Part shown: piece after piece, positions 1 through 62,000 of the stretch
How the letters are laid out: each line of letters starts with the position of its first letter
Numbering within the stretch: the stretch's first letter is position 1
DNA from: Candidatus Multivoradales bacterium
Lineage (GTDB): Bacteria; Acidobacteriota; Thermoanaerobaculia; Multivoradales; JAHEKO01
Assembly (NCBI GenBank): GCA_965223855.1
Contig: CBDCXM010000009.1
Span: 1,984,001 to 2,048,000, forward strand
Direction of reading: 5' to 3'
Length of the DNA: 64,000 nt
Program-made: the position numbers and the translations under genes
The notes under the pieces: generated by a model
What the model was told of the DNA's origin: nothing
The model's database searches: none
Seen by the model: the letters and a program-made list of their open reading frames with translations, nothing else

Positions 1-1
1 C

Positions 2-3000
2 AACCCCGACACCGGTTTCAGGTACTCGCGAGATTTCGGTCGCACCTGGATCGACCCGAACCCCGAGGCGGGACAGTTGGGCGGTACAGTCGTGCTCCAT
101 CCCGTCGTGCAGGACCGGCTGCTGCTGGCGACGGCCGACGGCATCCTCCTCTCGGAGGACGCAGGCGACACGTGGACGACCGTCGAGGCCGGGAGCAGAG
201 CGACTCAGATCGGTTTCTTCGGGCCGAACCCGGAGGTCGCCTACGCTGCAACTCTGGACGGCATTCTCCGGTCGAACGACGGGGGAGGCTCCTGGGAGCG
301 GGTCAACGAGATGGGGGGACTGGCCCTTGCGACGGACTCATCGTCGCCTGAGACGGTGTACGTCGCTTCGCCTGGAGCGTCCGCGTACCTGGGAAGAGTG
401 ACGGTTCCCCAGTTCGCGGCCGGAATCTGGGTGTCGCGCGACGGCGGCGAACATTTCTCGAGGCTAGGCCCGGAGATCCGAGCCCAAGCGAAGGCCATCG
501 ACGCCTTCCCCTTCCGGCCCGCCGTCACTCCCGGAGGCATTGCCACGTCCTCTTCCGACCCCGGTTTGCAGGGCCTCATTGCCGCGGGCGGGTCGGGGTC
601 CTTCGACGTCTCCTCCTTCGGAGCATTGTGTGACGGCGTGGAGGATGACACCTCAGCCATCCAGGCTGCGGTGGATGCCGCTGCACTGGCAAGCGGAGGT
701 ACCGTGGTGCTGCCAACGGGGATCTGTCGCATCGACGGCACGATCCAGATGGCCTCCGGGACCACTCTGATCGGCCAGGGAATCGGTGCGACCTTCCTTC
801 GAAGGGGCGGGATCAACTATCCGGCACCGCACTTCATGGTCGTCTTCGATGGCACCGAAGGGGCTTCGCTTCAGCACTTGACGATCGATGGCAGCCGCGG
901 CCTGGCCTCGGAAGCAACGGGCTCGCTGTCGGGAGTGGAGCTCGATTCGGCGCGAGAGATCTCGCTTCGATCGATTCAGATCAAGGCCCAGGAGGGCATC
1001 GGAGTGGTCGTGAACGGAACGACCACGGAGCTAGCCAACAGAGTCTCGATCCTGGACGCTCGCTTCGACGAAGTCGGCGGTGGCGCTCTCCTGTTGGAGG
1101 GTGAGTGGAGCGACGTGCTGGTGGCAGACTGCACGTTTGCCGACTACGAAGGCGTGCCGATTCGTCACGACGGCACCGGGTCTTCACTCCCGTCCACAGG
1201 TCTCGTCGTAAGCGGATCGCGCTTCACCAGTCAGAGTCCCCAGGTCGCGATTGAACTCGATTGGGTGGTTCGAACAAACATCAGTCAGAACGTGATCGCC
1301 GGCGGCATCGAGCTGGGCGAGGTGGGCTATGCAACGCTCGAGGAGAACGTCATTCGCTCTGACAGCGCTCCCGGCATCCTCGTGGACGACGAGTCGGGAC
1401 CTCTGGTCGTAGCCAACAACGTCGTGGAGAGTGCGGGGGACTGGGGTGTGCGAGCTCCCGTCGCCGGCGGTAGCCTGGTCGGCCTGTCCGTGGTCGGAAA
1501 TCGATTCCGCAGCGACGTGGGAGGAGTGTTCCTCTCAAAAGGGCGGGACGTGCTGATCAGTTCCAACAGCGTGGTAGCGACGTCCTCCGGGGGCACCAAC
1601 CACGGCCTTCTGGTCGCTTCTGATCTATCCGTCGAAAACGTCAGTATCACCAACAACGTCGTCAGGGACTCCCTGACGGGAATCGAAGTGGCCGTCGGTC
1701 AGGCATCCTTCGACACTGCGCTGGTAGCCGACAACCTCATCTATTCGAGCGTCGCCGGAGCTCAGGGGATCGTCATAGACGGCGCGATCTCGAACGCGCT
1801 GGACGGTGGCAACCAATCGGTCGAGATCGAACTCGACACCACGCCACCGACGCTCGCCTTCGTCAGCCCGACGAACGGTTCTTACGTCAACACCGCGAGT
1901 CCCGACTTGATCGTGGCCTTCTCCGACGCTCAGTCGGGAGTCGACACCGAAAGCCTCGCGTTCTTCGTCGACGGTGTCGCCGCTGCAAGCAGCTGCACCT
2001 TCGGCGTGGACAATGCCACCTGCCAACTGACGACTCCCTTGGCGGAGGGACCGGCGGCGCTCACGGCTTCCATCGCCGACCTGGAGGGCAACGTTTCGCC
2101 ACTGGCGGCATCCACGTTCACGGTCGACACCATCCCGCCCGACGCGGTCGATGTTCTGCTGGTTTCAGCCCCGGAGCCGACGGGTGGGAGCACGGCGCTG
2201 GCGGGCTCGCCAGGTGCGGCCGAAGGGTTGACGACCCTGACCGTGACGAATCGAAGTACCTCGGCGACCACAACGACGAACGTGGCCGCGGACGGCAGCT
2301 TCGCCCTGTCGGTTGCCGCGGAATCGGGCGATGTCCTCGAACTCGTGCTGACGGATGCGGCCGGCAACGCCAGCCCTCCGGCTCTAGTCTTCGCCGCTGT
2401 CCCGACGGCGTGCCATGAACCGCCGGACCCCAGCCTCGTAGCCGATCAGAGCCTGCTCTCCAATTACGACATCTTCGAGCATAGTCGCTTCCTTTGGGAA
2501 GGCGATCCTGCGGTCCAGATCGGTGTGCTCCCGGACGCTCTGCAGAGCGAGACGATGGCTCTCGTGCGTGGTTTCGTCTTCGACCGGGAAGGCAACCCGC
2601 TGCCCGGCGTATCGGTCTCGGTGCTGGACCGCCTTGAGTACGGTTGTACGGCAAGCCGAGTCGATGGCTCCTTCGACCTCGCCGTCACCGGTGGTCCTGC
2701 AGTGCTTTCCTTCGAGCGGGACGGCTACTTCTCGGTTCAACGGCGGCAGGACATCGCGGTTCGGGAGCTGACCTCGCTCGAGCAAGTCATCCTCACCGCG
2801 TTGCCCGCAACCGCCGATGCTCTCCTCCTGGGCGCCTCGACGGTGGAGGTCGCTAGGGGTGAGGTAGAGACCGATGCCGACGGCAGCCGACAAGCGACCG
2901 TCCTGGTGCCTGCCGGCGTCACAGCTGAACTCGAGATGCCGGACGGGTCCATGGTGCCGGCTCCCAACCTCACAGTGCGGATCAAGGAATTCACCGTGGG

Positions 3001-6000
3001 CGACCTCGGCCCCGACGCCATGCCGGGCGCTCTCCCTGCGGCCAGCGCCTACACCTACGCCTTCGAGGCCATCGCCGACGAGGCTGAGGCGGCGGGTGCC
3101 ACCTCGATCGTGTTCAGCGAACCGGTCTTCCACTACATCGAGAACTTCCTCGACTTCCCGGCCGGGACGGTAGTGCCCGTCGGGTTCTACGACCGCAAGC
3201 AGGGGCAATGGGTGGCGAGCGACGATGGCGTGGTGATCGACATCATCGGCATCGACGGCGCCGGCCTCGCGGAGCTCGACGTCGACGACTCCGGGCAGGC
3301 TGCGGACGCGGCGACCCTTGCCGGCCTCGGCTTCACGGACGCCGAGAGGGAGAAGCTTGCAACGCTCTATTCGGTCGGCGAGTCGCTCTGGAGGAGTCCG
3401 ATTCCCCATCTGACTCCGTGGGACTGCAACATGGCGTGGCGGAACTCGCCTGAGGACGCGATCAATCCCGATCCCGAGGTCACGGTCGGTGGCGGCGAGG
3501 AGTGCAACGACCAGCAGAGCGGCTCGATCATCGAGTGCCAGAACCAGGTCATCAGGGAGTCGATCCCGATAGCCGGGACGCCGTTCGCTTTGCACTACAG
3601 CAGCGAGCGAGTGGCGGGGCGGGAGTTCGACCGCATTCTCGACATCGAACTGACGCCGGACGAAGTGCCGGAGTCGCTGCAGACTGTGATCCTCGAGATC
3701 AAGGTGGCCGGTCAGGCGCATCGCTTCGAGTACCCGCCCCTGCCGGGCCTCCAGCACACCTTCATCTGGGATGGTCTCGACGCCTACGGGCGTCCGGTCG
3801 TCGGCGAGGTGGCGGTCAAAGGGAGAGTGGGCTTCAAGTATCCGTACCTGATCACCGGAGGGCCGGGCACTGGTCGCAGTTTCGGGCTCCCCTCCGCCTC
3901 GACCCTCACGCGCCCCTCGAGGGACGAGCTGATCGCCTGGGCAGACTTCAGCACCACGCTCCGCTCGCTGAATCTCGGACAGGACGGCGGCCCCCTGGGA
4001 CTCGGCTGGTCAGGCTGGTCGATCACTCCGCAACACATGCATGCCGTTCGCAGAATTGCCGAAGGCAGTCTCTACTTCGGTGATGGAAGCACCTACCCCT
4101 CGGATCAGTTGACGTTTCGGGAGGAGTTCCAGTTCGGCGGTGCCAACGTCGATTACTTCAAGTGGGAGAACGGCGGATGGGTTGTTGCCAACAACACCTT
4201 CCTCGCCGTGGATAGCATGACGACGGACGCGGCTGGCAACGTCTACGTCTCCGAAGGTGGGGGGATCTACAAGTTCATTCCGGGTGATGGCACCTATCGC
4301 ATCGCAGGTGGAGGCGGCTCCACCGCCGATGACATACCCGCAGTGGACGCGAGTCTCAACCAGCCCAGGAGGCTGGACGTGGGGGCCGACGGGACCCTCT
4401 ATTTTGCAGAGCACTTCGGCGGGAACCGAGTGCGACGCATCCGTCCTGACGGGATGATCGACACCGTCTTCTACGTCGACCGGCCTGCCGAGGTCTCGGT
4501 GGGGCCGGACGGGGCTCTCTACGTAGTAGAGAACGAGGGCTGGGACTCGATTCTGAAGGTCGATCCGGACTCGGGGGCGGCAGCGACGTTCGCTGGGGGT
4601 ACCGGCGACACCTGCTCCGACCCTGAGCGAGGTGATGGGGGGCCGGCGACTCTCGCCTGTCTCCGTCTGCACACCACCGTCATGAAACTGGGTTGGATGG
4701 CGGACGGCTCGATGTTGATCCCCGAGGGTCGAACCATGAACCGGATTCGCAGGGTCGCTCCCAGCGGCACGATCACCACGTTCATGGGCGACGACACTCC
4801 CGGCGATCCTGCCTACGGCCTCCACTACAGCAACTCGAGACTCGATTCTCCCAAGATGGTCGATGTCGATCCGGTCTCGGGCTCGATCCTGATTCTCGAC
4901 AGCGGCAATCGGCTCAGTCTGATCCAACCCGATGGGATCATCGTGCCGGTGGATGCGCCCGACGCTCGAGCGATGGAGTACTCGATCGACGGCCGAATGC
5001 ACTGGGTCAACGATCCTATCTTTCAGCCGCCCGCCCGGATGTACGTGCGGGAGTTCAGCGACTTCCGGGACGAGAACGGCAACTTCAACATCCCGTCACC
5101 GGATGCCAGCGCGATCTATCGCTTCGCACCGAACGGCCGGCATCTGGACACCGTCGATGCGGCCACGGGAGACCTGGTCTATCGCTTCAACTACGACGGC
5201 GCCGAGAGGCTCCAGAGCATCGAGGACCGCTACGGCTTGGAGATGACCGTTCAGCGCGGCGGTGGTGGGGCTCCCACCGCGTTGGTGGCCCCGCATGGGC
5301 AGGTGACCAACGTCACGGTCGATGGCGCGGGCAATCTGCTGTCCGTCGTCAATCCTGAAGGCGAGTCGTACTCGATGACCTATGGCGAGGGCGGCTTGCT
5401 GGAGTCGATCACCGACCCGCGAGACAACACGACATCGATGACCTATGACGCCGCCGGCCTGCTGCTGAGCGAGGAAGACGCCAAGGGCGCCACCAAGACC
5501 CTCACCCGAACTGCCGGCACCACCGACTACAGCGTCCTCTTCGCGACCGAAGAGGGTGCGACGGCCAACTACCACATACAGCGCAACGACGACGGAAGCC
5601 AGGACCGCACTCAGACGGACCCCGGAAACGTGGTCACCCTCACGCATCTGAAGAAGAACCTCGGTCGTACAGTGACCCGGCCGGACGGCACCGTCATCGA
5701 TCTCGAACTCGAAGACGACCCGAGGTTCGGAACCCAGTCGTTCGTCCCTCAGCTTCAGGTGGTCACTCCGCTGGGCCTGGTTCGAACGGTGACGACGACC
5801 CGCACGCCGACCTTCGTCGACCCCAGCGGCCCGCAGCGTGACCCGGCCAACCTCGAGACCCTGCTCGAGGAGGTCGACATCAACGGCGAGGTCTACTCGT
5901 CCCTCTACACGTCGGCGACCCGCACCTGGCAGCTGACGAGCCCGGAGGGCCGCACGGCTACCACGGTGCTGAATGCCGAAGGTGAAGTGGAGAGCGTCCA

Positions 6001-8248
6001 GCGTCCCGGCCTCCACCCGGTGACCATGACCTACGACACCGAGGGCCGGCTTGTAGAGACGCGGATGGGTGTAGCCCCGGACGAGCGAGTCACGACCTAC
6101 GCGTACGGCACGGCGGGATGGCTCGACTCGATGACGGACGCCGAGCAGCGCACCTTCGGGTGGCAGAGGGACCTCGTCGGCCGACCGCTCGTCACCGACT
6201 ATCCGGACGCGAGCCAGCTCGACACCGGATACGACGACAACGGCAACCTCATAGACCTCGCACCTCCCGGGCAGCCGTCGCACGCCTTCACCTACGACGA
6301 CGTGGACCTTCCCGATACCTATCAGGCCCCCGGCAATCCCGCGGAGGACCTTGACTTCAACCTCGATCGGCAGCCGATCACCCTCACCCGGCCCAGCGGC
6401 GAGGTCGTGACGTTCGAGTACGACGCCACCCGCAGGCTGACCAAGATCGACACGACGACCGACGACCACACGATGGTCTATCGATCCATCAGCAACCAGC
6501 TGCTATCCCTGTCGCACTGGCCTCAAGGCTCCGGCATCGGTACCGGCCAGACCCTGAGCTTCGAGTACGACGGCTTCCTGCCGACGAAGACCACCTGGTC
6601 AGGCACCGTCGGCGGCACGGTGCAGCACGACTACGACGACGACTTCCGCGTCGACAAGCAGACGGTCTACAACGGCCTGGTGATCTCGTACGGCTACGAC
6701 CTGGACAGCCTGCTGACCCAGGCCGGGTCGCTCGGCATCGTCCGCGACCCTGCGACCGGTTGGATCGACACTACGACGCTCGGCGTGATCGACACGAGCC
6801 AGGGCTACAACGGCTTCGGCGAGATGGACTCCTTCGAGGCAACCGTCTCTGCGGCCCCGGTCTATTCCGCTTCCTACGTCCACGACGACCTCGGCCGAAT
6901 CACCGAGAAGACCGAGACCATCGACGGCGTGACCTCGGTGTACGTCTACGAGTACGAAACGAGCGGTCGACTCGACAAGGTCTGGAAAGACGCCGCCCTG
7001 GTCGAGGACTACGGCTACGACGCCAACGGCAACCGCACCTCGTACGACGGCATGTTCGGGCCGGCGACCGGCAGCTACGACAGCCAGGATCGCCTCCAGA
7101 CCTACGGCTCGCGCACCTACAGCTTCGACGCCGACGGCGATCTCACGTCCGTCAGCTCCGGTGGCTTCCAGACGACCTACGACTACGACGCCATGGGCTC
7201 GCTGCGACAGGTCGTGCTCGATACCGGGGTCACCATCGACTACACCGTCGACGGGCTGAACCGCCGGGTCGGCAAGTCGATCGGCGGCGTGCTGGTGCAG
7301 GGCTTCCTCTACCAGGACCAGCTCAACCCGGTGGCGGAGCTCGACGGCGCGGGCAACGTGGTCAGCCAGTTCGTCTACGGCACGCGGGGGCACGTGCCGG
7401 ACTACATGACGAAGGGGGGCACGACCTACCGCATCGTTTCCGATCACCTCGGGAGCGTTCGCCTCGTCGTCAACACCTCGACGGGAGCGATCGTCCAGCG
7501 GATGGACTACGACTCGTTCGGGCGGGTGATCTTCGACGACAACCCGGGGTTCCAGCCATTCGGCTTTGCGGGCGGGTTGTACGAGCCGCAGACGGGGTTG
7601 GTGCGGTTCGGGGCGAGGGATTACGAGGCGGTGACGGGGCGGTGGACGGCTAAGGATCCGATTGGGTTTGGGGGTGGGGACAGCAATCTGTATTCGTATG
7701 TGGGACAGGATCCGGTGAATCTGGTGGATCCGAGTGGGGAGATTGTGCCGCTCGTAGTCGCGGGTGCGCTGGTTGGTGGTGCAGTTGCGGGAGGTCTGTA
7801 CGGGGCGTTCACGGATGACTTCACTTGGTGCGGGTTCTGGGGCGCTGTCGCCGGTGGCGCCATCGCCGGAGGGGTCGGTGTCGTTGCGACGCCGATTGCG
7901 GCGTCTCTAGGGTTAGGTACAGCCTGGACCGGGGCAGCGATAGTCAACGCGGGAGCAGGCCTGACTGCGGCGGTCGCGACAGCCGCGATTGACCCAGGCC
8001 AACCCTTGTCGATAGCGTTTCTTAGTACCTCTGCGGCGTTCGGAGGGCTAGGAGGTGCGCTCGGCGGAGCGGCGTTTCCAACGACAGGAATGTCCAACTT
8101 CCGCCAGGTTGGCTTTCCTAGGACATGGCGAGGAGTAACTCCGAGGGCGCTTGGCGGGACGATGGGGCAGAACGCGAGGCGTTCGGTTTGGCAGGGAGGA
8201 ACACTCGGTACAACGGTCGGATTTCTAGGTCCTTCTTATGTGCAATGA
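2..8248 (+). CDS. Giant teneurin-like RHS/YD-repeat protein (Asp-box propeller, pectate-lyase-like beta-helix, Ig-like, FN-plug, NHL, YD shell, RHS core, C-terminal tip); 5'-truncated
   Basis: The frame is open from nt 2 (NPDTGFRYSRDFGRTW), so the true start lies upstream. Asp-boxes SRDFGRTW, SEDAGDTW, SNDGGGSW, SRDGGEHF. Pectate_lyase_3-like start FDVSSFGALCDGVEDDTSAIQAAVD. Teneurin-like VRGFVFDREGNPLPGVSV..DGSFDL and HTFIWDGLDAYGR. Many YD repeats. RHS core PFGFAGGLY..GARDY..GRWTAKDP..NLYSYVGQDPVNLVDPSG. Confidence 0.93.
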   Translation, partial: NPDTGFRYSRDFGRTWIDPNPEAGQLGGTVVLHPVVQDRLLLATADGILLSEDAGDTWTTVEAGSRATQIGFFGPNPEVAYAATLDGILRSNDGGGSWERVNEMGGLALATDSSSPETVYVASPGASAYLGRVTVPQFAAGIWVSRDGGEHFSRLGPEIRAQAKAIDAFPFRPAVTPGGIATSSSDPGLQGLIAAGGSGSFDVSSFGALCDGVEDDTSAIQAAVDAAALASGGTVVLPTGICRIDGTIQMASGTTLIGQGIGATFLRRGGINYPAPHFMVVFDGTEGASLQHLTIDGSRGLASEATGSLSGVELDSAREISLRSIQIKAQEGIGVVVNGTTTELANRVSILDARFDEVGGGALLLEGEWSDVLVADCTFADYEGVPIRHDGTGSSLPSTGLVVSGSRFTSQSPQVAIELDWVVRTNISQNVIAGGIELGEVGYATLEENVIRSDSAPGILVDDESGPLVVANNVVESAGDWGVRAPVAGGSLVGLSVVGNRFRSDVGGVFLSKGRDVLISSNSVVATSSGGTNHGLLVASDLSVENVSITNNVVRDSLTGIEVAVGQASFDTALVADNLIYSSVAGAQGIVIDGAISNALDGGNQSVEIELDTTPPTLAFVSPTNGSYVNTASPDLIVAFSDAQSGVDTESLAFFVDGVAAASSCTFGVDNATCQLTTPLAEGPAALTASIADLEGNVSPLAASTFTVDTIPPDAVDVLLVSAPEPTGGSTALAGSPGAAEGLTTLTVTNRSTSATTTTNVAADGSFALSVAAESGDVLELVLTDAAGNASPPALVFAAVPTACHEPPDPSLVADQSLLSNYDIFEHSRFLWEGDPAVQIGVLPDALQSETMALVRGFVFDREGNPLPGVSVSVLDRLEYGCTASRVDGSFDLAVTGGPAVLSFERDGYFSVQRRQDIAVRELTSLEQVILTALPATADALLLGASTVEVARGEVETDADGSRQATVLVPAGVTAELEMPDGSMVPAPNLTVRIKEFTVGDLGPDAMPGALPAASAYTYAFEAIADEAEAAGATSIVFSEPVFHYIENFLDFPAGTVVPVGFYDRKQGQWVASDDGVVIDIIGIDGAGLAELDVDDSGQAADAATLAGLGFTDAEREKLATLYSVGESLWRSPIPHLTPWDCNMAWRNSPEDAINPDPEVTVGGGEECNDQQSGSIIECQNQVIRESIPIAGTPFALHYSSERVAGREFDRILDIELTPDEVPESLQTVILEIKVAGQAHRFEYPPLPGLQHTFIWDGLDAYGRPVVGEVAVKGRVGFKYPYLITGGPGTGRSFGLPSASTLTRPSRDELIAWADFSTTLRSLNLGQDGGPLGLGWSGWSITPQHMHAVRRIAEGSLYFGDGSTYPSDQLTFREEFQFGGANVDYFKWENGGWVVANNTFLAVDSMTTDAAGNVYVSEGGGIYKFIPGDGTYRIAGGGGSTADDIPAVDASLNQPRRLDVGADGTLYFAEHFGGNRVRRIRPDGMIDTVFYVDRPAEVSVGPDGALYVVENEGWDSILKVDPDSGAAATFAGGTGDTCSDPERGDGGPATLACLRLHTTVMKLGWMADGSMLIPEGRTMNRIRRVAPSGTITTFMGDDTPGDPAYGLHYSNSRLDSPKMVDVDPVSGSILILDSGNRLSLIQPDGIIVPVDAPDARAMEYSIDGRMHWVNDPIFQPPARMYVREFSDFRDENGNFNIPSPDASAIYRFAPNGRHLDTVDAATGDLVYRFNYDGAERLQSIEDRYGLEMTVQRGGGGAPTALVAPHGQVTNVTVDGAGNLLSVVNPEGESYSMTYGEGGLLESITDPRDNTTSMTYDAAGLLLSEEDAKGATKTLTRTAGTTDYSVLFATEEGATANYHIQRNDDGSQDRTQTDPGNVVTLTHLKKNLGRTVTRPDGTVIDLELEDDPRFGTQSFVPQLQVVTPLGLVRTVTTTRTPTFVDPSGPQRDPANLETLLEEVDINGEVYSSLYTSATRTWQLTSPEGRTATTVLNAEGEVESVQRPGLHPVTMTYDTEGRLVETRMGVAPDERVTTYAYGTAGWLDSMTDAEQRTFGWQRDLVGRPLVTDYPDASQLDTGYDDNGNLIDLAPPGQPSHAFTYDDVDLPDTYQAPGNPAEDLDFNLDRQPITLTRPSGEVVTFEYDATRRLTKIDTTTDDHTMVYRSISNQLLSLSHWPQGSGIGTGQTLSFEYDGFLPTKTTWSGTVGGTVQHDYDDDFRVDKQTVYNGLVISYGYDLDSLLTQAGSLGIVRDPATGWIDTTTLGVIDTSQGYNGFGEMDSFEATVSAAPVYSASYVHDDLGRITEKTETIDGVTSVYVYEYETSGRLDKVWKDAALVEDYGYDANGNRTSYDGMFGPATGSYDSQDRLQTYGSRTYSFDADGDLTSVSSGGFQTTYDYDAMGSLRQVVLDTGVTIDYTVDGLNRRVGKSIGGVLVQGFLYQDQLNPVAELDGAGNVVSQFVYGTRGHVPDYMTKGGTTYRIVSDHLGSVRLVVNTSTGAIVQRMDYDSFGRVIFDDNPGFQPFGFAGGLYEPQTGLVRFGARDYEAVTGRWTAKDPIGFGGGDSNLYSYVGQDPVNLVDPSGEIVPLVVAGALVGGAVAGGLYGAFTDDFTWCGFWGAVAGGAIAGGVGVVATPIAASLGLGTAWTGAAIVNAGAGLTAAVATAAIDPGQPLSIAFLSTSAAFGGLGGALGGAAFPTTGMSNFRQVGFPRTWRGVTPRALGGTMGQNARRSVWQGGTLGTTVGFLGPSYVQ

Positions 8249-8579
8249 GTTCTGCAAACGAGAGACTCTGGTGCCCGCCGCTACAGCGCTCGTGGTGTTT
8301 GGCTTAGTCACATGGACGACTTTCTCGGGTCCTTGCGAGGACCTGAAGATTCGCGGTTTCTTCGGCGGGATGGCTGCTGGGTTTGTGGCGAGCATACTTC
8401 TCGCTAAAGGTAGTTCACGCAAGGCCAGGCGCGGTCGTTTTCGAGCGCTTGCCGCCTCTATCATCTTGTTGGGGGCAGTTCTTCTTGCCGGTGTTTCGAA
8501 GCTTCTAGCGGCAGGGTTCTTTGCAGGAGCGGGAGTCGTGGTGATGTTTTGCCTTGCAGTCGAGGGTTTCCGCTCCTAG
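8238..8579 (+). CDS. Small multi-pass membrane protein, candidate immunity protein
   Basis: 113 aa with about 4 hydrophobic segments. It overlaps the RHS stop codon and shares the lower-GC composition of the toxin tip. Confidence 0.6.
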   Translation: MCNEFCKRETLVPAATALVVFGLVTWTTFSGPCEDLKIRGFFGGMAAGFVASILLAKGSSRKARRGRFRALAASIILLGAVLLAGVSKLLAAGFFAGAGVVVMFCLAVEGFRS

Positions 8580-8686
8580 AGTGCTCTTAGAGGTTCGCGC
8601 CCCTCCTAGAGGTGCCCCCTCCTAGAGGTGCCACTCGAATCCTGTAGGAATCCGGCCCCCCTAGAGGTGCCCCCTCCTAGAGGTTC
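8572..8686 (+). repeat. Array of short (CCCCT)CCTAGAGGT(G/T)C mini-hairpin repeats
   Basis: Exact 16-mers CCCCTCCTAGAGGTGC at 8600-8615 and 8616-8631. Variants at about 8572, 8585, 8656 and 8671, with another at 8882. Confidence 0.9.
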
Positions 8687-9092
8687 CGGGTGAATAGTCG
8701 AGAGCGAGGCTGCTTCGTGGTGGAGCCGCTCATGGGGAGCTTGTCGACCCTCGCGGTCAGGCCCTGAGCGCGCTGTGCATGCTTGAGATCCCGGCTTGGG
8801 AGCAGCTCTCACGGTGCTCAGCGCGACCTGGACGGTCTCTCCGACCCGCTTGCGCATAGCAATCCCTCGACCTCGGAGGGTCCCCTCCTAGAGGTTCCGG
8901 GTGAATAGTCGAGAGCGAGGCTGCTTCGTGGTGGAGCCGCTCATGGGGAGCTTGTCGACCCTCGCGGTCAGGCCCTGAGCGCGCTGTGCATGCTTGAGAT
9001 CCCGGCTTGGGAGCAGCTCTCACGGTGCTCAGCGCGACCTGGACGGTCTCTCCGACCCGCTTGCGCATAGCAATCCCTCGACCTCGGAGGGT
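8671..9092 (+). repeat. 211-bp tandem direct duplication (8671-8881, 8882-9092), rich in stem-loops
   Basis: The two copies read identical by eye, and each starts with CCCCTCCTAGAGGTTC. Confidence 0.95.
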
Positions 9093-10167
9093 CGATGGGT
9101 AGGGATCCGGAAGCGGGACCGGGCGACTAGCCGGCGCGCGCCGTGGAGGGCTGGTAGGTGTGCGGCCTGAAACAGCCTTCGGGGAAGCGCGCCACCCGAC
9201 CCTGGCGGAGTGCCTTGGATGCCGCGCGGTACTCGAGCAAGAACCACCGGTAGGCCTCTTCCATCGCCCGACGCACCCCGGCGTCACGGGCATGGAATCT
9301 TGGGGCAGGCGTGCGCTTGAAGCGCTCTGGCCGGTCGTGAGGATCCTGGGCCAGGATCGCCTTGCGACCCAGGACGGGCTTGCCGGTTGCCTCGTGCGCC
9401 TCCTCTACGGCCTTGACCATCTGGCGGACTCGCTCGCGGTAGTCCGCGTCATCCAGATGTTCCCAGCAAGGGATCGGCGTCAGCTCTAGAAGGTGCTTCG
9501 AGGCGAAGCGCCTCGAAGGATTCGCTTCTCCCCGACGGTGCGCTCGATACTGTTCGGAGCGGTCGATCCACTCGCCTTCCATCGCTTCGCCGGAAAGCAG
9601 CGCATGCGTGCTCGTCGCTCCAGGCCAGTGACGAGGTGAAGCGACAAGCCGCTCCTTCACGCCTTGCTCGAGCAGATAGCGCAGCCGGCGAATGTGATCC
9701 TCGGGTGTCTGGCTGACGACCACATCCGTGTAGCGGCGTCCCCAGAAACGCTCCCTCCAGGCGTGGATTCTCCCGATCTCGCGAGCGACGTTGGAGTTGA
9801 CGTAGGTCATGAAGCTCGCCATCTGTTCGACGTCGGTGGGCCTCAGCAGCAGATGGGCGTGGTTCGACAGGTAGACGAAGCCACAGACTCGCATCCCCGT
9901 TCGCGCCTGGGCGCGAGCGAGGATGCCGACGACCCGGTCGCGCACCTTAGCCGACGGACGCAACAGGTACCGGCCGTGTTGCGTCCGGACCGTGATCTCG
10001 ACGAGGGACTCCTCCGGCAGATAGCGAAGCTTCCTGGACATTCCATGGAAGAGGACGCGACCGTGGCGCCGAATCTTGCACGCTTCGCCCGGTCTCTTGT
10101 TACGGCGTGAAGACGCGAGTTCGGCGGCGAATGTGAACCATTCGCCTGGAACCCCTCTCGGGGGAGG
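8882..10167 (-). mobile_element. Putative RAYT/Y1-HUH element bounded by imperfect inverted end motifs
   Basis: Left end GAGGTTCCGGGTGAATAGTC (8891-8910) matches the reverse complement of 10136-10155, GGGGTTCCAGGCGAATGGTT, at 15/20 positions. Each motif overlaps an outer mini-hairpin. Confidence 0.6.
9127..10041 (-). CDS. Y1 HUH transposase (REP-associated tyrosine transposase-like)
   Basis: MSRKLRY..VEITVRT..LLRP, HUH motif LSNHAHLL, FWGRRY, and LRYLLEQGVKERLV..P..WP..S. The ORF track's 760-aa ORF is an over-extension of this gene. Confidence 0.85.
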   Translation of the reverse strand: MSRKLRYLPEESLVEITVRTQHGRYLLRPSAKVRDRVVGILARAQARTGMRVCGFVYLSNHAHLLLRPTDVEQMASFMTYVNSNVAREIGRIHAWRERFWGRRYTDVVVSQTPEDHIRRLRYLLEQGVKERLVASPRHWPGATSTHALLSGEAMEGEWIDRSEQYRAHRRGEANPSRRFASKHLLELTPIPCWEHLDDADYRERVRQMVKAVEEAHEATGKPVLGRKAILAQDPHDRPERFKRTPAPRFHARDAGVRRAMEEAYRWFLLEYRAASKALRQGRVARFPEGCFRPHTYQPSTARAG

Positions 10168-10178
10168 ACTGATCGCCC

Positions 10179-10568
10179 TCAGTTGACCAGTGCGATGCCG
10201 AAGAACCTCCGGCAGTCGCCCGGCAGGCAGCCCGAGGGGTTCTGGCTGCTGGCCGTGTGGACCCAAAGCCGTACCGACTTGTCGTGGGCCATCGCAGTGT
10301 TGACGATCGCCATCGCCTGCTCGACCCGACTCTGATCGGAGTCGGCGATGGAGAAGAAGGAGACCGCGACGTCGCCGTACCTGCCGACGTTGAGCGGCGA
10401 CTGACAGCGAACGTGGTAGCGGCTGCCGAAGAAGACCGCCGACTCTGTCGGCTTGCAGTACTTGGTGACCGTTGCCGGGAGCGGATCGTCCGCGGCTACG
10501 CCGCCGGCGATGGCTGCGATGGCGAAGAGGGCGATGATCGGCACAGCGATGCGATGAGGGAGGGGCAT
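10179..10568 (-). CDS. Small secreted protein with 4 Cys, unknown function
   Basis: AGGAG RBS. Signal peptide MPLPHRIAVPIIALFAIAAIAGGVAA followed by a mature part of about 100 aa. Confidence 0.75.
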   Translation of the reverse strand: MPLPHRIAVPIIALFAIAAIAGGVAADDPLPATVTKYCKPTESAVFFGSRYHVRCQSPLNVGRYGDVAVSFFSIADSDQSRVEQAMAIVNTAMAHDKSVRLWVHTASSQNPSGCLPGDCRRFFGIALVN

Positions 10569-10881
10569 TGGGGACTCCTCTTGTGATGAAGCAACTGGGA
10601 TAGGGCGACGCCTGGCATCGTACCGCCCGATCCCTTCGCGGGGTTCCGGGTGGACACCGGATCGGCCTCTTGCAGCCTTCGGTACCGAGCGTCGAGGCGA
10701 GCGTGATGAAGGTCGCTCGAGATCGTGCCTTGAGAGCACCCATCGCGACGCTTCGCTTCTCGATGCCACCTTGAACGCCGAGCGTCGCCGACTCGATGAG
10801 GCGCCACCATCCCTGCGGTACTCTAGGTCGCCGTTCCGAAAAAGTCGGGAGCCGGCTTGTGAAGGAGCGAAGCAGAGCACG

Positions 10882-11646
10882 ATGAGGGTTCTCGCGGTTA
10901 TCGCGGCGCGCATGGGGTCCAGCCGGCTGCCGGGCAAGGCCTTGATGCCCCTGGCGGGCCGACCGATGCTCGAGCGGCTGATCGAACGAGCGAGGTTGTC
11001 CGGCCGGGTGTCCGATGTCGTCGTCGCCACCACCGAACTCGAAGCCGATGACGAGCTCGAGGCGCTTGCCGGCAACCTCGGGGTGTGCTGCTTCCGAGGA
11101 TCCGAGGACGACGTGCTCGGTCGCATCGACGCCGCGATTGATACGGTCGCCTGCGACGCGGTGGTGCAACTGTTGGGGGACAACCCTCTGGTCGATCCGC
11201 GGCTGATCGCCGATGTCCTCGATGCCTACGTCGCCACGGGTGCCGGGTGGATGGTGACTGCGACGGACGAACTTCCACGGGTGCCGGATGAGATGCCTCG
11301 CTTTCCGATCGGGGTGCGGGTCGAGGTATTCAGCCCTGCAGCGCACCGGCTCTGCGCCGAGCGGGCGGGGGACGCTCATTCCCGAGAGCACTCGTCGAGC
11401 TTCGCTCACAAGAACCCGGGCGTGTTCGACCTCGACTACTTCGCAGCGGACGGGCCGTGGGCGGCCGTCAGCCGCCCCGGCTACACCTTCGCGATCAACT
11501 ACCGCCAGAACTACGAGATGGTGCAGGTGATATTCGATCGTCTCTACCCCGTGGCGAGCGACTTCTCGTTGGCAGACGCCATCGGCCTGGTGGAAGCCGA
11601 TCCCGAGCTCATGGGCGGAATGGGGCCGCCGATGGTTGCATCGTGA
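10882..11646 (+). CDS. SpsF-like cytidylyltransferase
   Basis: AVIAARMGSSRLPGKAL, FRGSEDDVLGR, GDNPLVDP, REH. Confidence 0.88.
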   Translation: MRVLAVIAARMGSSRLPGKALMPLAGRPMLERLIERARLSGRVSDVVVATTELEADDELEALAGNLGVCCFRGSEDDVLGRIDAAIDTVACDAVVQLLGDNPLVDPRLIADVLDAYVATGAGWMVTATDELPRVPDEMPRFPIGVRVEVFSPAAHRLCAERAGDAHSREHSSSFAHKNPGVFDLDYFAADGPWAAVSRPGYTFAINYRQNYEMVQVIFDRLYPVASDFSLADAIGLVEADPELMGGMGPPMVAS

Positions 11647-56199: not shown

Positions 56200-56337
56200 G
56201 AGCTCATCGACAGATACCTTGCCGTTGCGACGGCTCCGGTCGGAGCGAAGGGAGCGCCTCGTCCGCCCAGCAGTGCTGATCTATACTCCGCAGCCTCTCG
56301 CGGCAGCTCGACAGTGCCCTGCAGGAGAGATCGATCG

Positions 56338-57291
56338 ATGAAAGTCAGCGAACATCTCGCACGCGCCGAGCGGCCGCTCCTGAGCTTCGAGATCATCCCG
56401 CCGCTTCGTGGGGGCAACCTCGCCAGCCTGCTCGAGCTGATCGAAGATCTGGCACGCTTCGACCCGCCGTTCATCGACATCACCAGCCACGCCGCTCAGG
56501 TGAGCTACGAGGAGACCGGAGACGGCAACCTCGAGCGACGGGTCAAGCGCAAGCGGCCCGGCACGCTCGGCCTGTGTGCCCTGGTGCAGAACAAGTACCA
56601 GATCGATGCGGTGCCCCACGTCCTGTGCAGCGGGTTCAGCCGCGAGGAGACCGAGGACTTCCTCATCGAGCTCAAGTACCTCGGGATCTCGAACGTCCTC
56701 GCCATCCGCGGCGACGAGGGGGCGTACGAGAAGCCGCTGACGTTCGGTCGCAGCGCCAACAAGTACGCGGTCGATCTGGTGGAGCAGGTCGCGGCGATGA
56801 ACGACGGCCGCTACCTGCAGGAGGACCTGCTCGACGCCGAAGCGTCCGACTTCTGCATCGGCGTGGCCGGCTACCCGGAGAAGCACTTCGAGGCGCCGAA
56901 CCTGGTTTCCGACCTGCGGCACACGAAGGCGAAAGTGGAGGCGGGCGCCGACTACGTGGTGACCCAGATGTTCTTCGACAATCGTCACTACTTCGCCTAC
57001 GTCGACGCCTGCCGGGAGCATGGAATCGACGTGCCGATCGTGCCCGGCATCAAGATCCTGACCAGCCGCAGCCATCTCCAGTCGTTGCCGCGCACCTTCC
57101 ACTGCGAGATTCCGGCCGAGCTCGCCGACGAGGTCGGTGCCTCGCCGGCGTCGCGAGCGCGCGACATCGGAGTCGAGTGGGCGACCCGCCAGGCTCAGGA
57201 GCTCATCGATCGCGGCGCGCCGTCGATCCACTTCTACGTGATGGCGAATTCGCGGGCGGTGGCGCGGGTCGTCGAGCAGCTCAAGTTCTGA
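56338..57291 (+). CDS. metF: 5,10-methylenetetrahydrofolate reductase
   Basis: SFEIIPP, VPHVLC, LAIRGD, VAGYPEKH, GADYVVTQMFFD, IHFY. Confidence 0.94.
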   Translation: MKVSEHLARAERPLLSFEIIPPLRGGNLASLLELIEDLARFDPPFIDITSHAAQVSYEETGDGNLERRVKRKRPGTLGLCALVQNKYQIDAVPHVLCSGFSREETEDFLIELKYLGISNVLAIRGDEGAYEKPLTFGRSANKYAVDLVEQVAAMNDGRYLQEDLLDAEASDFCIGVAGYPEKHFEAPNLVSDLRHTKAKVEAGADYVVTQMFFDNRHYFAYVDACREHGIDVPIVPGIKILTSRSHLQSLPRTFHCEIPAELADEVGASPASRARDIGVEWATRQAQELIDRGAPSIHFYVMANSRAVARVVEQLKF

Positions 57292-58675
57292 CGCCGGACT
57301 CCGTCGGCGGTCCGCCCTGGAATCGCCTCAGGTAGGGCCCCTCGACCATGTCGGGGACGGCGCGACGCCGGCACCGCGTGCAAACCACCTCCACGGGATC
57401 TCCCGCCAGGAGCGGCCCGGTCCGAAGCTTGCTGACTCCGCGCACCTCGCAGTCGGAACAGAAGAATGGCATGAGGAGGGATTCGACGCTGAAGCCGGCG
57501 AAGAAGTCCGAGTCGATGTTGAACAGGAGAACCAGCAGGGGTGGGCACTCGGCGATGACGACCGATCTGCCGTCGTCGCGAAGCTGTTCGAGCCAGTCGC
57601 GCCAGAGGCTGTACCCCCGACTGTTGATGTGCGTGACTCCGGAGAGTCGTAGCTCCAGCGAATCTTCGTCCTGGCTGAACAGGAGGTCCTCGAACCGGCT
57701 CTGTTCATTGATCGTGCCGGCGAGTTCGACCACGACACGCGAAGCCCGGTGACTCACCCAGGTCGCCAGTGCCCGCTGCGCCGCAGGGTAGGGCCGGTCC
57801 TCTCTCCTGCGGACGGGCCGAGCCATCAGCTTGCGCAGCTCGACGAGCCTCAGCCGCATCTCGCCGGCCGAGGCGATCCGATGCGCCAGATTGCGGTCGA
57901 GTGCGTCGGCGGCCAGGCGGTCGGCTTCGGCCGGGATTGCCAGATGAGGAGCCAGCTCCCCCGGAAGTCGTGGCTGAGTGCCTTCTATGGCCGCGAGGAG
58001 CGACGGGAGGTCCTGATCCTCATGGGGAAGCCGCCCGCTGACCATCAGCACGAAGAGCACCCCGAGGGCGTAGACGTCGGATCGCGGTGTCGGCCCCGGT
58101 CCATCCGTTCGGAGGAGTTCGGGGGCTACATAGGCCGGCGTGCCGGCGAGTGAAGCGGCGCCGGCCGTCTTCGGCATCGCGAGCGCCAGCCCGAAGTCGA
58201 GCACCTTGACCATGTTCGTGCGGGCACCGTCACGACAGAGGAAGACGTTCTCCGGTTTGAGGTCGCGGTGGACGATGCCGTGCGCGTGCGCCGCTTCCAG
58301 AGCGAAGGCGACTTCGATCAGGATGGACGCCGCCTCGTCGACCGGAAGCGGCCCCGATCGGGCGAGTCTCTGCGCCAGGGTCTCGCCGTCGAGCAGCTCC
58401 ATGGCGAGGTAGGCGCCGTTCTCGATCCGGCCGAAGTCGAGAACCTGGACGATGTTGCGATGACCGATCAGCGAAACCGTCCTGGCCTCGCGCTCGAGGC
58501 GATCGATCGGCTCGCCCCGGAGGCCGTCCCGGCTCACGAGCTTGATCGCCATCCGGCGACCGACCCTCAAGTGCTCGGCGTCGTACACCGCACTCGACCC
58601 GCTCGCGTCGAGTCGGCGGTCCAACCTGTAGCGCCCCTCCAGGATCGTCCCGACCCAGGCATCAGAATCCGACAG
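57281..58675 (-). CDS. Hanks-type Ser/Thr kinase with a C-terminal STAS-like/Zn-ribbon domain
   Basis: AIK, HRDLKPEN, DFG, GTPAYVAPE, SDVYALG; C-terminal INSRG..W, CSDC and CTRC. The start is uncertain (CTG 9 nt after GGAGG). Confidence 0.85.
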   Translation of the reverse strand: MSDSDAWVGTILEGRYRLDRRLDASGSSAVYDAEHLRVGRRMAIKLVSRDGLRGEPIDRLEREARTVSLIGHRNIVQVLDFGRIENGAYLAMELLDGETLAQRLARSGPLPVDEAASILIEVAFALEAAHAHGIVHRDLKPENVFLCRDGARTNMVKVLDFGLALAMPKTAGAASLAGTPAYVAPELLRTDGPGPTPRSDVYALGVLFVLMVSGRLPHEDQDLPSLLAAIEGTQPRLPGELAPHLAIPAEADRLAADALDRNLAHRIASAGEMRLRLVELRKLMARPVRRREDRPYPAAQRALATWVSHRASRVVVELAGTINEQSRFEDLLFSQDEDSLELRLSGVTHINSRGYSLWRDWLEQLRDDGRSVVIAECPPLLVLLFNIDSDFFAGFSVESLLMPFFCSDCEVRGVSKLRTGPLLAGDPVEVVCTRCRRRAVPDMVEGPYLRRFQGGPPTESGVRT

Positions 58676-58769
58676 AACGACAGACCTCCAGAAAATTGGC
58701 GCCGAGTATAGAGGCTCACCGTCTCGAGAACGACTCGGCCGGGTGCATAGCCGGATCTCTCGAGGATCG

Positions 58770-58798
58770 TTGACCCGGTCTCCGATCCCGGCTAGGCT
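58770..58798 (+). promoter_or_regulatory. Sigma70-like promoter of the riboswitch-metH operon
   Basis: TTGACC-N17-TAGGCT. The implied TSS (~58805) coincides with the riboswitch 5' end. Confidence 0.65.
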
Positions 58799-58802
58799 CG
58801 TC

Positions 58803-58920
58803 GGCGCATCAGGAGTGGTCCGGTAGAGACCGGACTCGGCAACCTGGGACGGACACCCAAGGTGCCTCTCGCTCGACGCGAGGATGTGGCCGCCGCCGGC
58901 GGCAACGAACTGTCCGGGTG
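58803..58920 (+). ncRNA. SAM-I/IV riboswitch
   Basis: P1 CATC..GATG, AGGAG, P2, P3 GGCAACC..GGTGCC, P4 CTCGC..GCGAG, P5 CCGCC..GGCGG. The P3 loop CGGACA can pair with the 3' TGTCCG (PK-2). Lies upstream of metH. Confidence 0.88.
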
Positions 58921-58933
58921 GCTCGGTAGCTGC

Positions 58934-58970
58934 GGCCCGCTCCCTGATGCGAGAGCGGGCCTTCGTCGTT
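58934..58970 (+). terminator. Riboswitch-controlled terminator-like hairpin
   Basis: GGCCCGCTC-10 nt loop-GAGCGGGCC followed by TTCGTCGTT (a weak U tract). Confidence 0.65.
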
Positions 58971-59011
58971 GGCCCGCGTCTCGGACGAGCGACGACGAAG
59001 GAGAGCAGCAG

Positions 59012-62000
59012 ATGAACGAACCGACATCCACCCCGATCCCGGAGATTCCTCGGCCGCCGGACCTCGACGAGCGGACCGCAGCGCTCGTCGATGCGCTCGC
59101 CGAGCGCATCCTCGTGCTCGACGGGGCGACCGGTACCGCCCTCCAGGCGTTCGACCTCACGGCGGACGACTTCGGCGGCGACGACCTCGAAGGTTGCAAC
59201 GAGAACCTCGTCGCCACCCGCCCCGACGTCGTGGCTGCGGTCCATCGTCGCTACCTCGAGGCGGGGGCCGACATCGTCGAGACCAACACCTTCGGCGGCA
59301 CGCCGCTCGTGCTCGACGAGTACGGGCTCGGCGATCGGGCGATCGAGCTCAACCGCGAGGCGGCCCGCATCGCGCGCGAGAGCTGCGCCCGCTTCGAGGG
59401 GGACGGCCGGCTGCGCTTCGTCTGCGGTTCGATGGGGCCGACTACGAAGGCGATCTCGGTGACCGGCGGGGTGACCTTCGAAGAGCTGATCGATCACTTC
59501 AGGATTCAGGCGCTCGGTTTGATGGCCGGAGGCGTCGACTACCTGCTGCTCGAGACCTGTCAGGACACCCGCAACGTCAAGGCGGGGCTCCTGGGGATCG
59601 AGGCCGCCTTCGAAGGGGTCGGCTGGCGGGTGCCGGTCGCCGTGTCGGTCACCATCGAGCCGACCGGCACGATGCTGGCGGGGCAGGATGCCGAGGCGCT
59701 GGCGATCTCGCTGGCGCACGTCGATCTGCTCTATCTGGGGCTCAACTGCGCGACCGGGCCGGAGCTGATGGCCGAGCACCTGAGGACGCTGTCGACGCTG
59801 GCACGCACCCGGATCGCCTGCGTGCCGAACGCCGGTCTGCCGGACGAAGAGGGCGACTACAACCAGTCGGCGGACGACTTCCGCGAGGTGTTCGGCCGGT
59901 TTCTCGACGAAGGGTGGCTCAACCTCGTCGGCGGCTGTTGCGGCACGACCGAGGAGCATGTCGCGGCGCTGGCCGACCTCGTCGAGGGCCGCCGACCGAG
60001 GGTCGCCCCCCGTCATCAGCGCTCGTTCGTCTCGGGCATCGAAGCGGTGGAGTTGACCGCCGACAACCGGCCGCTGCTGGTCGGGGAGCGCACCAACGTG
60101 CTCGGTAGCCGCAAGTTCAAGAAGCTGATCGCCGGGGGCGACTGGGAGGCCGCCGCGGAGGTCGGGCGAGCCCAGGCGCGGGGCGGCGGGCAGGTGCTCG
60201 ACGTCTGCATGCAGGACCCCGATCGCGACGAGGCGGCGGACGTGAGCCGTTTTCTCGACCGTCTCGTGCGGATGGTGAAGTTGCCGCTGATGGTCGACTC
60301 GACCGATGCGGCGGTGATGGAGGATGCGCTGACCTACTGTCAGGGGAAGTCGGTCCTCAACTCGATCAACCTCGAGGATGGTCTCGCGCGTTTCGATCAG
60401 GTGGCACCGCTGGCGCGGCGCTACGGCGCGGCGGTCGTCGTAGGCCTGATCGACGAGCAGGGGATGGCGGTCGATGCCGCCCGCAAGCTGGAGGTCGCCC
60501 GGCGCAGCTACCAGCTGCTCACAGAGGACTACGGACTGCCGCCCGAGGATCTGTGGTGGGATCCGCTCGTCTTCCCGTGCGGCACCGGCGACGAGAACTA
60601 CATCGGTTCCGCCGCCGCGACGATCGAGGCGGTGCGGCGCATCAAGGAGGAGTTCCCGCTGTCGAAGACCGTGCTCGGGATCTCGAACGTCAGCTTCGGC
60701 CTGCCGGGAGCCGGGCGCGAGATTCTCAACTCGGTCTTCCTCTACCACGCGACGAGGGCGGGCCTGGATGCCGCGATCGTCAACACCGAACGCCTCGCGC
60801 GCTACGCCGAGATCGGCGACGAGGAGCGCCGTCTGTCGGAGGCGCTCCTCTTCCTCTCTCCCGGCGACGTCGAGCAGAGCGAGGCGGCGGTGGCGGCCTT
60901 CACCGAGCACTTCAGGGGGCGCAAGAGCCAGGCGGCAGGGCCGCCGATCGAGACGTTGCCGCTGGAGGACCGGCTGGCGCGCGCCGTGATCGAGGGGACG
61001 AAGGAAGGGCTGACGGACAACCTCGAGGCGGCGCTCGCCGACGACCGATGGCCCGATCCGCTGGCGATCATCAACGGGCCGCTGATGAAGGGCATGAGCG
61101 AGGTCGGCCGGTTGTTCAACGACAACCAGCTGATCGTCGCCGAGGTGCTGCAGAGCGCCGAGGTGATGAAGGCCGCGGTGAACTTCCTCGAGCCGCACAT
61201 GGAGCGCAGCAGCGGCGCCAGCCGCGGCAGGATTCTGCTCGCCACCGTCAAGGGTGACGTCCACGACATCGGCAAGAACCTTGTGGACATCATCCTCAGC
61301 AACAACGGCTTCGAGGTCGTCAACCTCGGGATCAAGGTGCCGAGCGAGCAGCTCGTGCAGGGGGTTCGCGAGCACGGGCCGGACGTGATCGGTCTGTCCG
61401 GCCTGCTGGTCAAGAGCGCCCAGCAGATGGTGTCGACCGCCGGCGACCTGGCGGCGGCCGGGATCGACATGCCGCTGATCGTCGGTGGCGCCGCTCTCAC
61501 GAGGCGCTTCACGCATCGGCGCATCGCTCCCGAGTACGGGGGGCCGTGCACCTACGCGACCGACGCGATGGACGGGCTGCGACTGGTCGAGGGGCTGACC
61601 GACGCCGACCAGCGGCCGGCGCTCGAACGCGAGATCCTGCGCCTGCAGGAGGAGGATCGCGTCGCCGAGGGGGCGAGTCGCAAAGCGGCGCGCCCCCGGA
61701 GACGGGCTGCTCCCGAGATCGACCGCACGCTGCCGGCGCCGTCCCCGCCCGATCTCGAGCGGCACGTCGAGCAGCTCGATCTCGACAGCGTCTGGGAAGA
61801 GCTCAACCCGCAGATGCTCTTCGGCAAGCACCTCGGTCTCAGGGGCTCGGTCGCTGCGCTCGCGGCCGCGGGTGACGAGCGCTACCGCAAGCTCGAAGCG
61901 CTGATCGAGGATCTCAAGGACCGTGCGCGCGGCGGTTCGCTGTCCGCGCAGGCAGTGTGGCAGTTCTTCGCGGCGACACCGGACGGTGATCGTCTCGTGC

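Follow-up and report, generated by a model that had tools for sequence, protein, structure and literature searches.

Bacterial teneurin-like proteins (TLPs) have been described as polymorphic toxins which share an invariant TTR-TIP-FN-plug-NHL-YD superfold and vary in their N-terminal 'adhesion domains' (PMC13018210, Nat Commun, Feb 2026). According to that paper, their C-terminal domain (CTD) averages ~15 kDa, is enclosed in the shell and is cleaved at a PxxxxDPxG motif, with a second DPxG located ~20 residues further upstream in the RHS core, and a second cleavage takes place at a conserved plug serine, which in the Bacillus inaquosorum protein BiTLP is the site G723|S724, together with C719. 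The same source reports a downstream immunity gene for almost all TLPs, and a hydrophobic CTD in BiTLP which permeabilises E. coli when sent to the periplasm; it describes no obvious delivery machinery and in its discussion calls the route to target cells unknown (PMC13018210). It places TLPs in <3% of species in phyla other than Myxococcota, and the Acidobacteriota genomes that it lists are two, both Holophagae (PMC13018210). Here we describe a TLP gene at the 5' edge of a 64,000-nucleotide stretch of a Candidatus Multivoradales (Acidobacteriota) genome, in which an earlier note, made from the sequence alone, had seen a teneurin-like YD-shell toxin carrier; the whole stretch is called the window (G000:C9:1984001-2048000, with G000 being the genome that holds it). 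The toxin family itself is already known, and what is new is the head of the protein, a rare variant with an Asp-box propeller and a beta-helix, next to which a free copy of the beta-helix is encoded.

The TLP gene is on the + strand and starts with an ATG at G000:C9:1983390, which is 611 nt 5' of window base 1, and it ends with a stop codon at window 8246-8248, with the window start truncating the gene. The earlier note had called for an extension of the contig in the 5' direction, and this supplied the start codon and the signal peptide of a 2952-aa protein. The order of its parts is signal peptide, Asp-box propeller, beta-helix, Big_7 and Big_6 immunoglobulin-like (Ig) domains, TTR, TIP, FN-plug, NHL, YD shell, RHS cleavage motif and a 169-aa CTD, followed by a 113-aa membrane open reading frame (ORF). 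Pfam was run on the window part of the TLP, and positions of Pfam hits are given in the numbering of that window protein; all other features are listed by window nucleotide unless stated otherwise.

First ~40 aa, 5' of the window, + strand: Sec-type signal peptide, with an Arg-rich n-region, hydrophobic aa 15-37 and a cleavage site read as SHA|SN.
1..8248, + strand: window part of the TLP gene (full protein 2952 aa), with a GC content at third codon positions (GC3) of 0.82 in the body.
1..571, + strand: Asp-box (BNR) beta-propeller, C-terminal part; the whole propeller takes up aa ~51-394 of the full-length protein.
572..1880, + strand: head domain (aa 395-830), a right-handed parallel beta-helix; its N-cap is of the PF12708 type, and it has an Asn ladder.
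1847..2392, + strand: two bacterial Ig-like domains (Big_7, Big_6; Pfam), which join the head to the teneurin-type core.
2543..2794, + strand: TTR (transthyretin-like) domain (PF25020, 6.2e-17; TTR_TEN1-4 848-931), aligning to BiTLP from residue 386.
2795..3841, + strand: TIP insertion and FN-plug, in a 385-bit alignment spanning BiTLP residues 386-835.
3518-3523, + strand: Gly|Ser pair matching the N-terminal autoproteolysis site of BiTLP (ECNDQQSG|SIIEC, aa 1377/1378).
3635-3841, + strand: Pfam FN-plug_TEN1-4 (PF24329; protein 1212-1280), scoring 27.5 bits, narrowly below the 27.8 cut-off.
4337..4906, + strand: NHL beta-propeller repeats (PF25021; TEN_NHL 1446-1635), at 27.1 bits, at the cut-off.
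5084..7699, + strand: YD/RHS shell (PF25023, TEN_YD-shell, 1.4e-41; RHS_repeat, 5 stretches).
7655..7738, + strand: RHS core autoproteolysis motif, made up of DPIG (aa 2756) and PVNLVDPSG, the last residue of which is aa 2783 (DPSG aa 2780).
7739..8248, + strand: polymorphic CTD, aa 2784-2952, 169 aa.
8238..8579, + strand: 113-aa ORF, candidate immunity protein with about four hydrophobic segments, overlapping the toxin stop by 11 nt.

Compared with solved structures, the core of the protein (aa 1041-2770) matched the entries named 'teneurin-like protein' (9ifo and 9pt5, BiTLP) with an E-value of 3e-254. Teneurins 2-4 came next (1e-53 to 1e-72), followed by the Rhs proteins of type VI secretion systems (T6SS) at ~1e-14 or worse, and the result bears out the toxin carrier of the earlier note. 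The motifs on which that proposal was built were assigned correctly in part: FIWD..DAYG does lie in the Pfam FN-plug, whereas VRG.V...G.PL.GV.V..DGSFDL belongs to the TTR domain and not to the FN-plug. Four aligned stretches of the NHL region fall on NHL repeats of BiTLP, the YD shell aligns to BiTLP residues 1266-2130 at 403.6 bits, and the SG|SIIEC of the TLP aligns with EG|SIIGA of BiTLP, with a Cys four to seven residues upstream conserved. All sequence features of the class are present, i.e. FN-plug, NHL and YD shell as well as the PxxxxDPxG motif with a second DPxG (24 residues apart) and the plug serine, and the 3' end of the gene shows the CTD and an overlapping membrane ORF with matching atypical GC3. 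Judged by its sequence, the protein is a bacterial teneurin-like polymorphic toxin, and its membership of the family is secure. Pfam found no PAAR, VgrG-binding or DUF6531 domain in the TLP, and in place of the PAAR or VgrG-loading N-terminal region of a T6SS Rhs effector it has a Sec-type signal peptide. The genome holds one TLP. Elsewhere on the same contig another giant open frame, 3659 aa long (G000:C9:993607-997067), gave a weak teneurin-YD-shell match of 20 bits, below the cut-off, and ~1.6 kb downstream of it lies a copy of the Y1/IS200-like gene described below.

TLP cores were found in 29 of the 121 genomes sampled from the order, G000 included, which is far above the frequency reported outside Myxococcota (PMC13018210). 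Among 13 other TLPs of the order, eight have heads made of a Rax2-type propeller and Ig arrays, two combine CBM96 with Ig domains, one has Ig domains only and two match no family; neither a beta-helix nor an Asp-box domain occurs in any of these heads. Since the TLP heads in the order fall into few types, the TLP system seems to have its variable, targeting end in the head. A TLP from the same genus (G003) is 57% identical from aa 813 on and has an unrelated N-terminus, and an exhaustive representative search gave one other beta-helix-headed TLP, the metagenomic protein P0023. The open frames at the TLP loci of the order (L012-L025, L110-L120) reach ~5500 aa and mostly carry Rax2-type propeller and Ig-array heads. 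At one further locus (L027:16670-17692, G014), an orphan 341-aa ORF with RHS repeats is located ~0.9 kb 3' of the TLP gene, and may be a displaced toxin-tip cassette.

The beta-helix family is rare as well. It was found in two of the 41 genomes searched among relatives, G000 included, and a scan of species-representative contigs, in which at least 590 stretches matched, gave among the best 80 of at least 158 relatives (79 loci) a single match to nearly the whole beta-helix (residues 10-403, E 1e-46), in a Candidatus Multivoradales metagenome-assembled genome, also of the Acidobacteriota (L029). The rest of that scan consisted mainly of the generic PF12708 N-cap, with the next best E-value among the matches listed being 1e-12, and in metagenome contigs 437 pattern matches reduced to one locus, that of P0023 (L109). 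When long proteins were compared with the first 1040 aa of the TLP, 17 of 7999 scored candidates had E<=0.001, the query included, and there was no relative of the head among them: the 16 others cover 9-24% of the query, by eye in its Ig region. The text and text supplements of PMC13018210 make no mention of beta-helix, BNR or carbohydrate-binding heads, which might be shown in the domain charts of its figures.

The second feature which sets the locus apart is the gene directly 5' of the toxin. This overlaps the TLP start by 4 nt and encodes a secreted 455-aa protein, which is a stand-alone beta-helix ~33-35% identical to that of the head. These two adjacent copies are the only ones of the family in G000, and in all four loci found with the family (4/4) a free beta-helix gene lies directly 5' of a giant gene fronted by the beta-helix, as follows.

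G000: free beta-helix gene and the TLP.
L109 (P0023): free beta-helix gene and a TLP.
G022: free beta-helix gene and an Ig/Laminin_G giant (3263 aa) in which two beta-helices lie in tandem, adhesin-like, without a toxin.
L029: free beta-helix gene and a 2114-aa Ig/PKD giant, adhesin-like, without a toxin.

A structure prediction for the head together with the free paralogue scored 0.78, compared to 0.00 for the best of three controls; 116 of 157 solved complexes and 2 of 215 mismatched pairs attain the mark in question. The runs had at least 89% of contacts in common, with a partner pLDDT of at least 85, and the predicted interface extends along one side of each rung in the two helices, including E286 and R311 of the head. 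The model thus supports binding of the head by the free paralogue. Ordinary signal peptides are present in the free paralogues, and an alignment read by eye showed no recognisable membrane or wall anchor in them; a reading of the G000 copy as a lipoprotein, suggested by LLAC in its signal region, was set aside, as there is no lipobox in the homologues P0032, P0041 and P0045. A GroEL gene (L004:10270-11931) is found ~1.1 kb 5' of the free beta-helix gene, and with this gene upstream the toxin operon lies between housekeeping genes.

The pectate-lyase or tailspike-type beta-helix which the earlier note had recognised is present. Pfam matched Pect-lyase_RHGA_epim (201-265, 3.9e-13) and Beta_helix (435-595, 1.8e-13), the PF12708/PF13229 pair, and an AlphaFold2 (AF2) model had a pLDDT of ~90 over aa 400-800. 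Its Foldseek neighbours were AlgE4 (1.6e-9), the AlgE6 A-module, an alginate epimerase/lyase and CBA120 TSP3 (1.3e-8), as well as the tailspikes of Sf6 and HK620, phi29 gp12, the RbmB lyase, polygalacturonases and one adhesin, PfbA. The family profile matched AlgE4 at 3e-30. The catalytic residues of AlgE4 are Tyr149, Asp152, His154 and Asp178 (according to PMC7385640), and in the comparison of the family profile with 2pyg the first three face the consensus letters a, s and t, with the TLP stretch being AQEGIGVVVNG; Asp178 is outside the well-aligned stretch. With Tyr149, Asp152 and His154 not kept in the family, an AlgE-type C5-epimerase or alginate lyase A-module was rejected.

The at least four Asp-box repeats of the earlier note are likewise present. 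The four canonical boxes (S-x-D-x-G-x-x-W/F) have their first bases at window nt 26, 152, 272 and 434, and 5' of the window two less strict copies were read by eye. A search with the Asp-box region gave matches down to E 8e-53 on proteins which Pfam labels Sortilin-Vps10/PSII_BNR. In the joint AF2 model with the beta-helix, pLDDT was <50 over most of aa 1-400, and the propeller was modelled alone (pLDDT 77.6, pTM 0.77). This model resembled 3b7f, a BNR 'putative glycosyl hydrolase' (7.7e-16), GH74 enzymes (~1e-13), DAIP, Ycf48 and Vps10. A GH33 sialidase, with its six-bladed fold, was rejected, with no sialidase in Foldseek ranks 1-50 and no BNR_2 in Pfam, and the (F)RIP arginine motif was not seen by eye in TLP aa 40-400. 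GH74 was rejected as well: in these enzymes the active site lies between two seven-bladed propellers in tandem, whereas the TLP has a single propeller of ~350 aa, which in the alignment covers about half of a GH74 chain (700-770 aa), at a target-normalised TM of ~0.3. The folds of the head are of the polysaccharide-handling kind, and since the AlgE4 catalytic residues are absent, we favour binding over cleavage for the modelled head.

At the other end of the protein, the 169-aa CTD consists of 21% Gly and 18% Ala, and contains 11 GxxxG motifs, four to five hydrophobic segments and one Cys. Near the cleavage motif (nt 7727-7739), at nt ~7650, in-frame GC3 falls to ~0.60 after a level of ~0.92, and stays low through the 113-aa ORF, with values of 0.586 for the CTD and 0.588 for the ORF. 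Six other RHS/TLP proteins have this CTD after their DPxG motif, at 39-56% identity; one of the six, a DUF6531-type RHS protein of 1494 aa, is 45% identical to the TLP from the end of the YD shell through the motif to the C-terminus. The one PDB hit for the region after the RHS core was a marginal match to SGS4 (E 0.006). The GC3 break, the adjacent ORF of matching composition and the recurrence on other RHS bodies are the signature by which CTD and ORF are recognised as an exchanged toxin/immunity cassette. Given the composition of both products, the recurrence of the CTD and the hydrophobic CTD of BiTLP (PMC13018210), the CTD is most likely a membrane-inserting toxin which permeabilises the cytoplasmic membrane of the target. 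The ORF probably encodes the membrane immunity protein that protects the producer, as its position matches that of the immunity genes described for TLPs (PMC13018210).

Taken as a whole, we consider the chances slightly better than even that the locus encodes a Sec-exported TLP with a membrane-acting CTD, its immunity protein and a glycan-binding head of two chains. The signal peptide would export the protein, and the TTR-TIP-FN-plug-NHL-YD-shell scaffold would enclose the CTD until cleavage at the RHS aspartyl-protease motif frees it, upon which the glycine-zipper-rich hydrophobic domain would enter and permeabilise the cytoplasmic membrane of the target; the small multi-pass membrane protein encoded downstream would shield the producer, and the pair would have been gained as a cassette. 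The beta-helix of the head would pair side by side with the free secreted paralogue to form a two-chain tailspike-like module, and this would bind cell-surface polysaccharide, without cleaving it, and so set the place where the toxin docks.

A number of observations weigh against this explanation or parts of it. The CTD matches no Pfam family, even at E<=5, and has no match in 400 other genomes sampled from the phylum, and its Atlas neighbours are unnamed clusters, with the named ones, at <=0.84, being uninformative and usable as leads only. The 113-aa ORF has no homologue among 553 candidates and Pfam matches at chance level only, and its GC3 is low for the genome. In the alignment of 12 family members the conserved beta-helix columns are mostly those of the N-cap and Asn ladder, and thus structural, no conserved catalytic or sugar-binding site is definable, and the near-invariant family Asp at head position 234 is an Arg in this TLP. 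Beta-helices and Asp-box propellers may also bind proteins, as with PfbA, DAIP, Ycf48 and Vps10. The complex prediction was made for paralogous chains with custom shallow alignments (5 and 7 rows) and cognate pairing only, and its score may reflect a memory of the model for solved trimeric tailspikes, in which beta-helices lie side by side. Finally, a protein of 300 kDa would have to cross an outer membrane.

The alternatives differ mostly in what they make of the head and of its neighbourhood, for which two further features of the window are needed.

9127-10062, - strand: Y1/IS200-like (HUH, 'NHAHLL') transposase-like gene, ~311 aa, in the 2.2-kb gap between the toxin and the polysaccharide locus.
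10771-55776: surface-polysaccharide locus of 45 kb with nonulosonate genes (Pfam).

The ulosonate polysaccharide locus which the earlier note had placed ~2 kb from the toxin is real. It includes a CMP-type cytidylyltransferase, NeuB, a UDP-GlcNAc 2-epimerase, a PglD-like acetyltransferase, a DegT aminotransferase and a Polysacc_synt_2 dehydratase, and also GT2 and GT4 transferases, Bac_transf, an ABC exporter, MBOAT, a UDP-glucose dehydrogenase, a Wzc-like ATPase, Poly_export (Wza) and Wzy_C; several of its ORFs, of 400-590 aa, have no Pfam family. The earlier note had proposed a capsule-binding or depolymerase module which reads or breaches target glycans, and had taken the vicinity of the locus to suggest glycan-based kin discrimination. 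As an alternative, the head, with or without the propeller, would be an active capsule depolymerase that breaches the glycans of the target, and toxin and locus together would serve kin discrimination. That the neighbouring folds include true depolymerases and lyases (CBA120 TSP3, Sf6, HK620, RbmB, polygalacturonases and the alginate epimerase/lyase), that a locus with NeuB and a CMP-transferase begins 2.2 kb downstream, and that the charged residues E286, R311, D381 and D/E366 (head numbering) are conserved in the family all speak for it; the loss of the AlgE4 catalytic residues and of the Asp at position 234, and a single GH74-like half propeller with neither a sialidase among its neighbours nor a RIP motif seen, speak against a depolymerase, and we consider this alternative as a whole quite improbable. 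The genomic linkage does not recur either, with none of seven other TLP loci adjoining polysaccharide genes, as judged from the flanks for G003, G014 and L109 and from the distance to the nearest Poly_export or Bac_transf gene for the contiguous genomes G014 (~599 kb), G113 (~240 kb), G122 (>1.7 Mb), G051 (~376 kb) and G032 (~34 kb), and with neither of the two beta-helix-headed loci without a toxin (G022 and L029; 0/2) lying beside such genes. Between toxin and polysaccharide locus lies the transposase-like gene, whose family has 27 matches in G000, of which ~20 are nearly full-length and 54-88% identical. Downstream of the G014 TLP there is a gene with 44% identity, and a conserved synteny of TLP and Y1/IS200-like gene was rejected because the family is multicopy. 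A scan of window 8000-11000 for promoters and terminators gave nothing above shuffle expectation. The adjacency of toxin and capsule genes is probably fortuitous, and as this linkage is not conserved in other TLP loci, kin discrimination through glycans comes down to one adjacency and is unsupported; without new experimental support the idea should be given up. Downstream of the polysaccharide locus, at window 56314-62506, are the housekeeping genes for MTHFR and for a B12-dependent methionine synthase of full length (1214 aa).

The head could also serve to display or anchor the protein on its producer, with the free paralogue or the producer's own surface polysaccharide holding the giant protein and targeting being located elsewhere or absent. 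This would be consistent with the adjacency to the producer's own polysaccharide locus, and with the presence of the same head and partner cassette in front of two toxin-free, Ig-rich, adhesin-like giants, but that adjacency is not conserved and the free paralogues lack a recognisable membrane or wall anchor. We consider display unlikely; self-binding and target-binding would look alike in the present data. A role in adhesion or social signalling, as in teneurins, with the CTD as a membrane anchor or inert cargo, would fit a CTD without an enzymatic family and a head with adhesin-like domains, and a part in communication between cells is left open in PMC13018210; this is difficult to reconcile with an intact RHS cleavage motif and N-terminal cleavage site and with a CTD which behaves as a portable cassette, having its own composition, a matching small ORF and a recurrence on unrelated RHS bodies, and it appears very improbable. 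The glycan-binding two-chain head of the preferred explanation can be taken one step further, into a portable receptor-binding device of TLPs which reads the target polysaccharide like a tailspike or tailocin fibre and is swapped as a cassette between toxins and adhesins; in this extended form we regard it as speculative and rather unlikely.

The locus offers a testable lead on the targeting of TLPs, as it combines a polysaccharide-type head with a conserved, co-encoded predicted partner, and surface giants that are not toxins carry this head cassette too. If the two-chain reading of the head is true, it would give a first handle on how TLPs choose their targets and dock to them.

Of the systems described, BiTLP (9ifo/9pt5; MfTLP also belongs here) has the same TTR-TIP-FN-plug-NHL-YD core, two DPxG motifs, a Gly|Ser site with an upstream Cys, a small CTD and a small downstream gene; it comes from a different host lineage, and its head consists of Ig-type adhesion domains (PMC13018210), whereas that of the TLP described here consists of an Asp-box propeller and a beta-helix with a free paralogue predicted to bind to it. 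Metazoan teneurins 2-4 (6fb3, 6fay, 7bam) have the FN-plug, NHL and YD-shell superfold in common with the TLP, but are type II membrane receptors without the RHS cleavage motif and the TIP, and with the C-terminus outside the shell (PMC13018210). T6SS Rhs effectors (RhsA 7q97, RhsP 8h8a, Tse15) and the BC component of Tc toxins likewise enclose a DPxG-released C-terminal toxin in a YD shell, but the TLP differs from the T6SS effectors in its Sec signal peptide and its teneurin-type plug and NHL, and is only distantly similar to them in sequence. The mosquito proteins SGS1 and SGS4 (8fjp, 9on3) are also RHS/YD-derived giants, with marginal sequence similarity to the TLP; they are secreted, belong to eukaryotes and have a horizontal origin. 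With regard to the head, phage tailspikes (Sf6, HK620, CBA120 TSP3) and AlgE4-type A-modules have a right-handed parallel beta-helix with the same N-cap, but tailspike-type depolymerases are homotrimers with a defined acidic catalytic pair, whereas the head is predicted to form a heterodimer, its partner being a paralogue on a chain of its own. In the way the two helices are predicted to lie side by side, the pair recalls the packing of tailspike subunits. A further relative is the metagenomic P0023, which differs in having no Asp-box propeller (its beta-helix starts at residue ~38), another CTD and downstream ORF, and glmS and glmU as neighbours instead of a polysaccharide locus, but which is 54% identical over 2395 residues, beta-helix head included, and like the TLP of the window has a free beta-helix gene directly 5' and a small ORF 3'.

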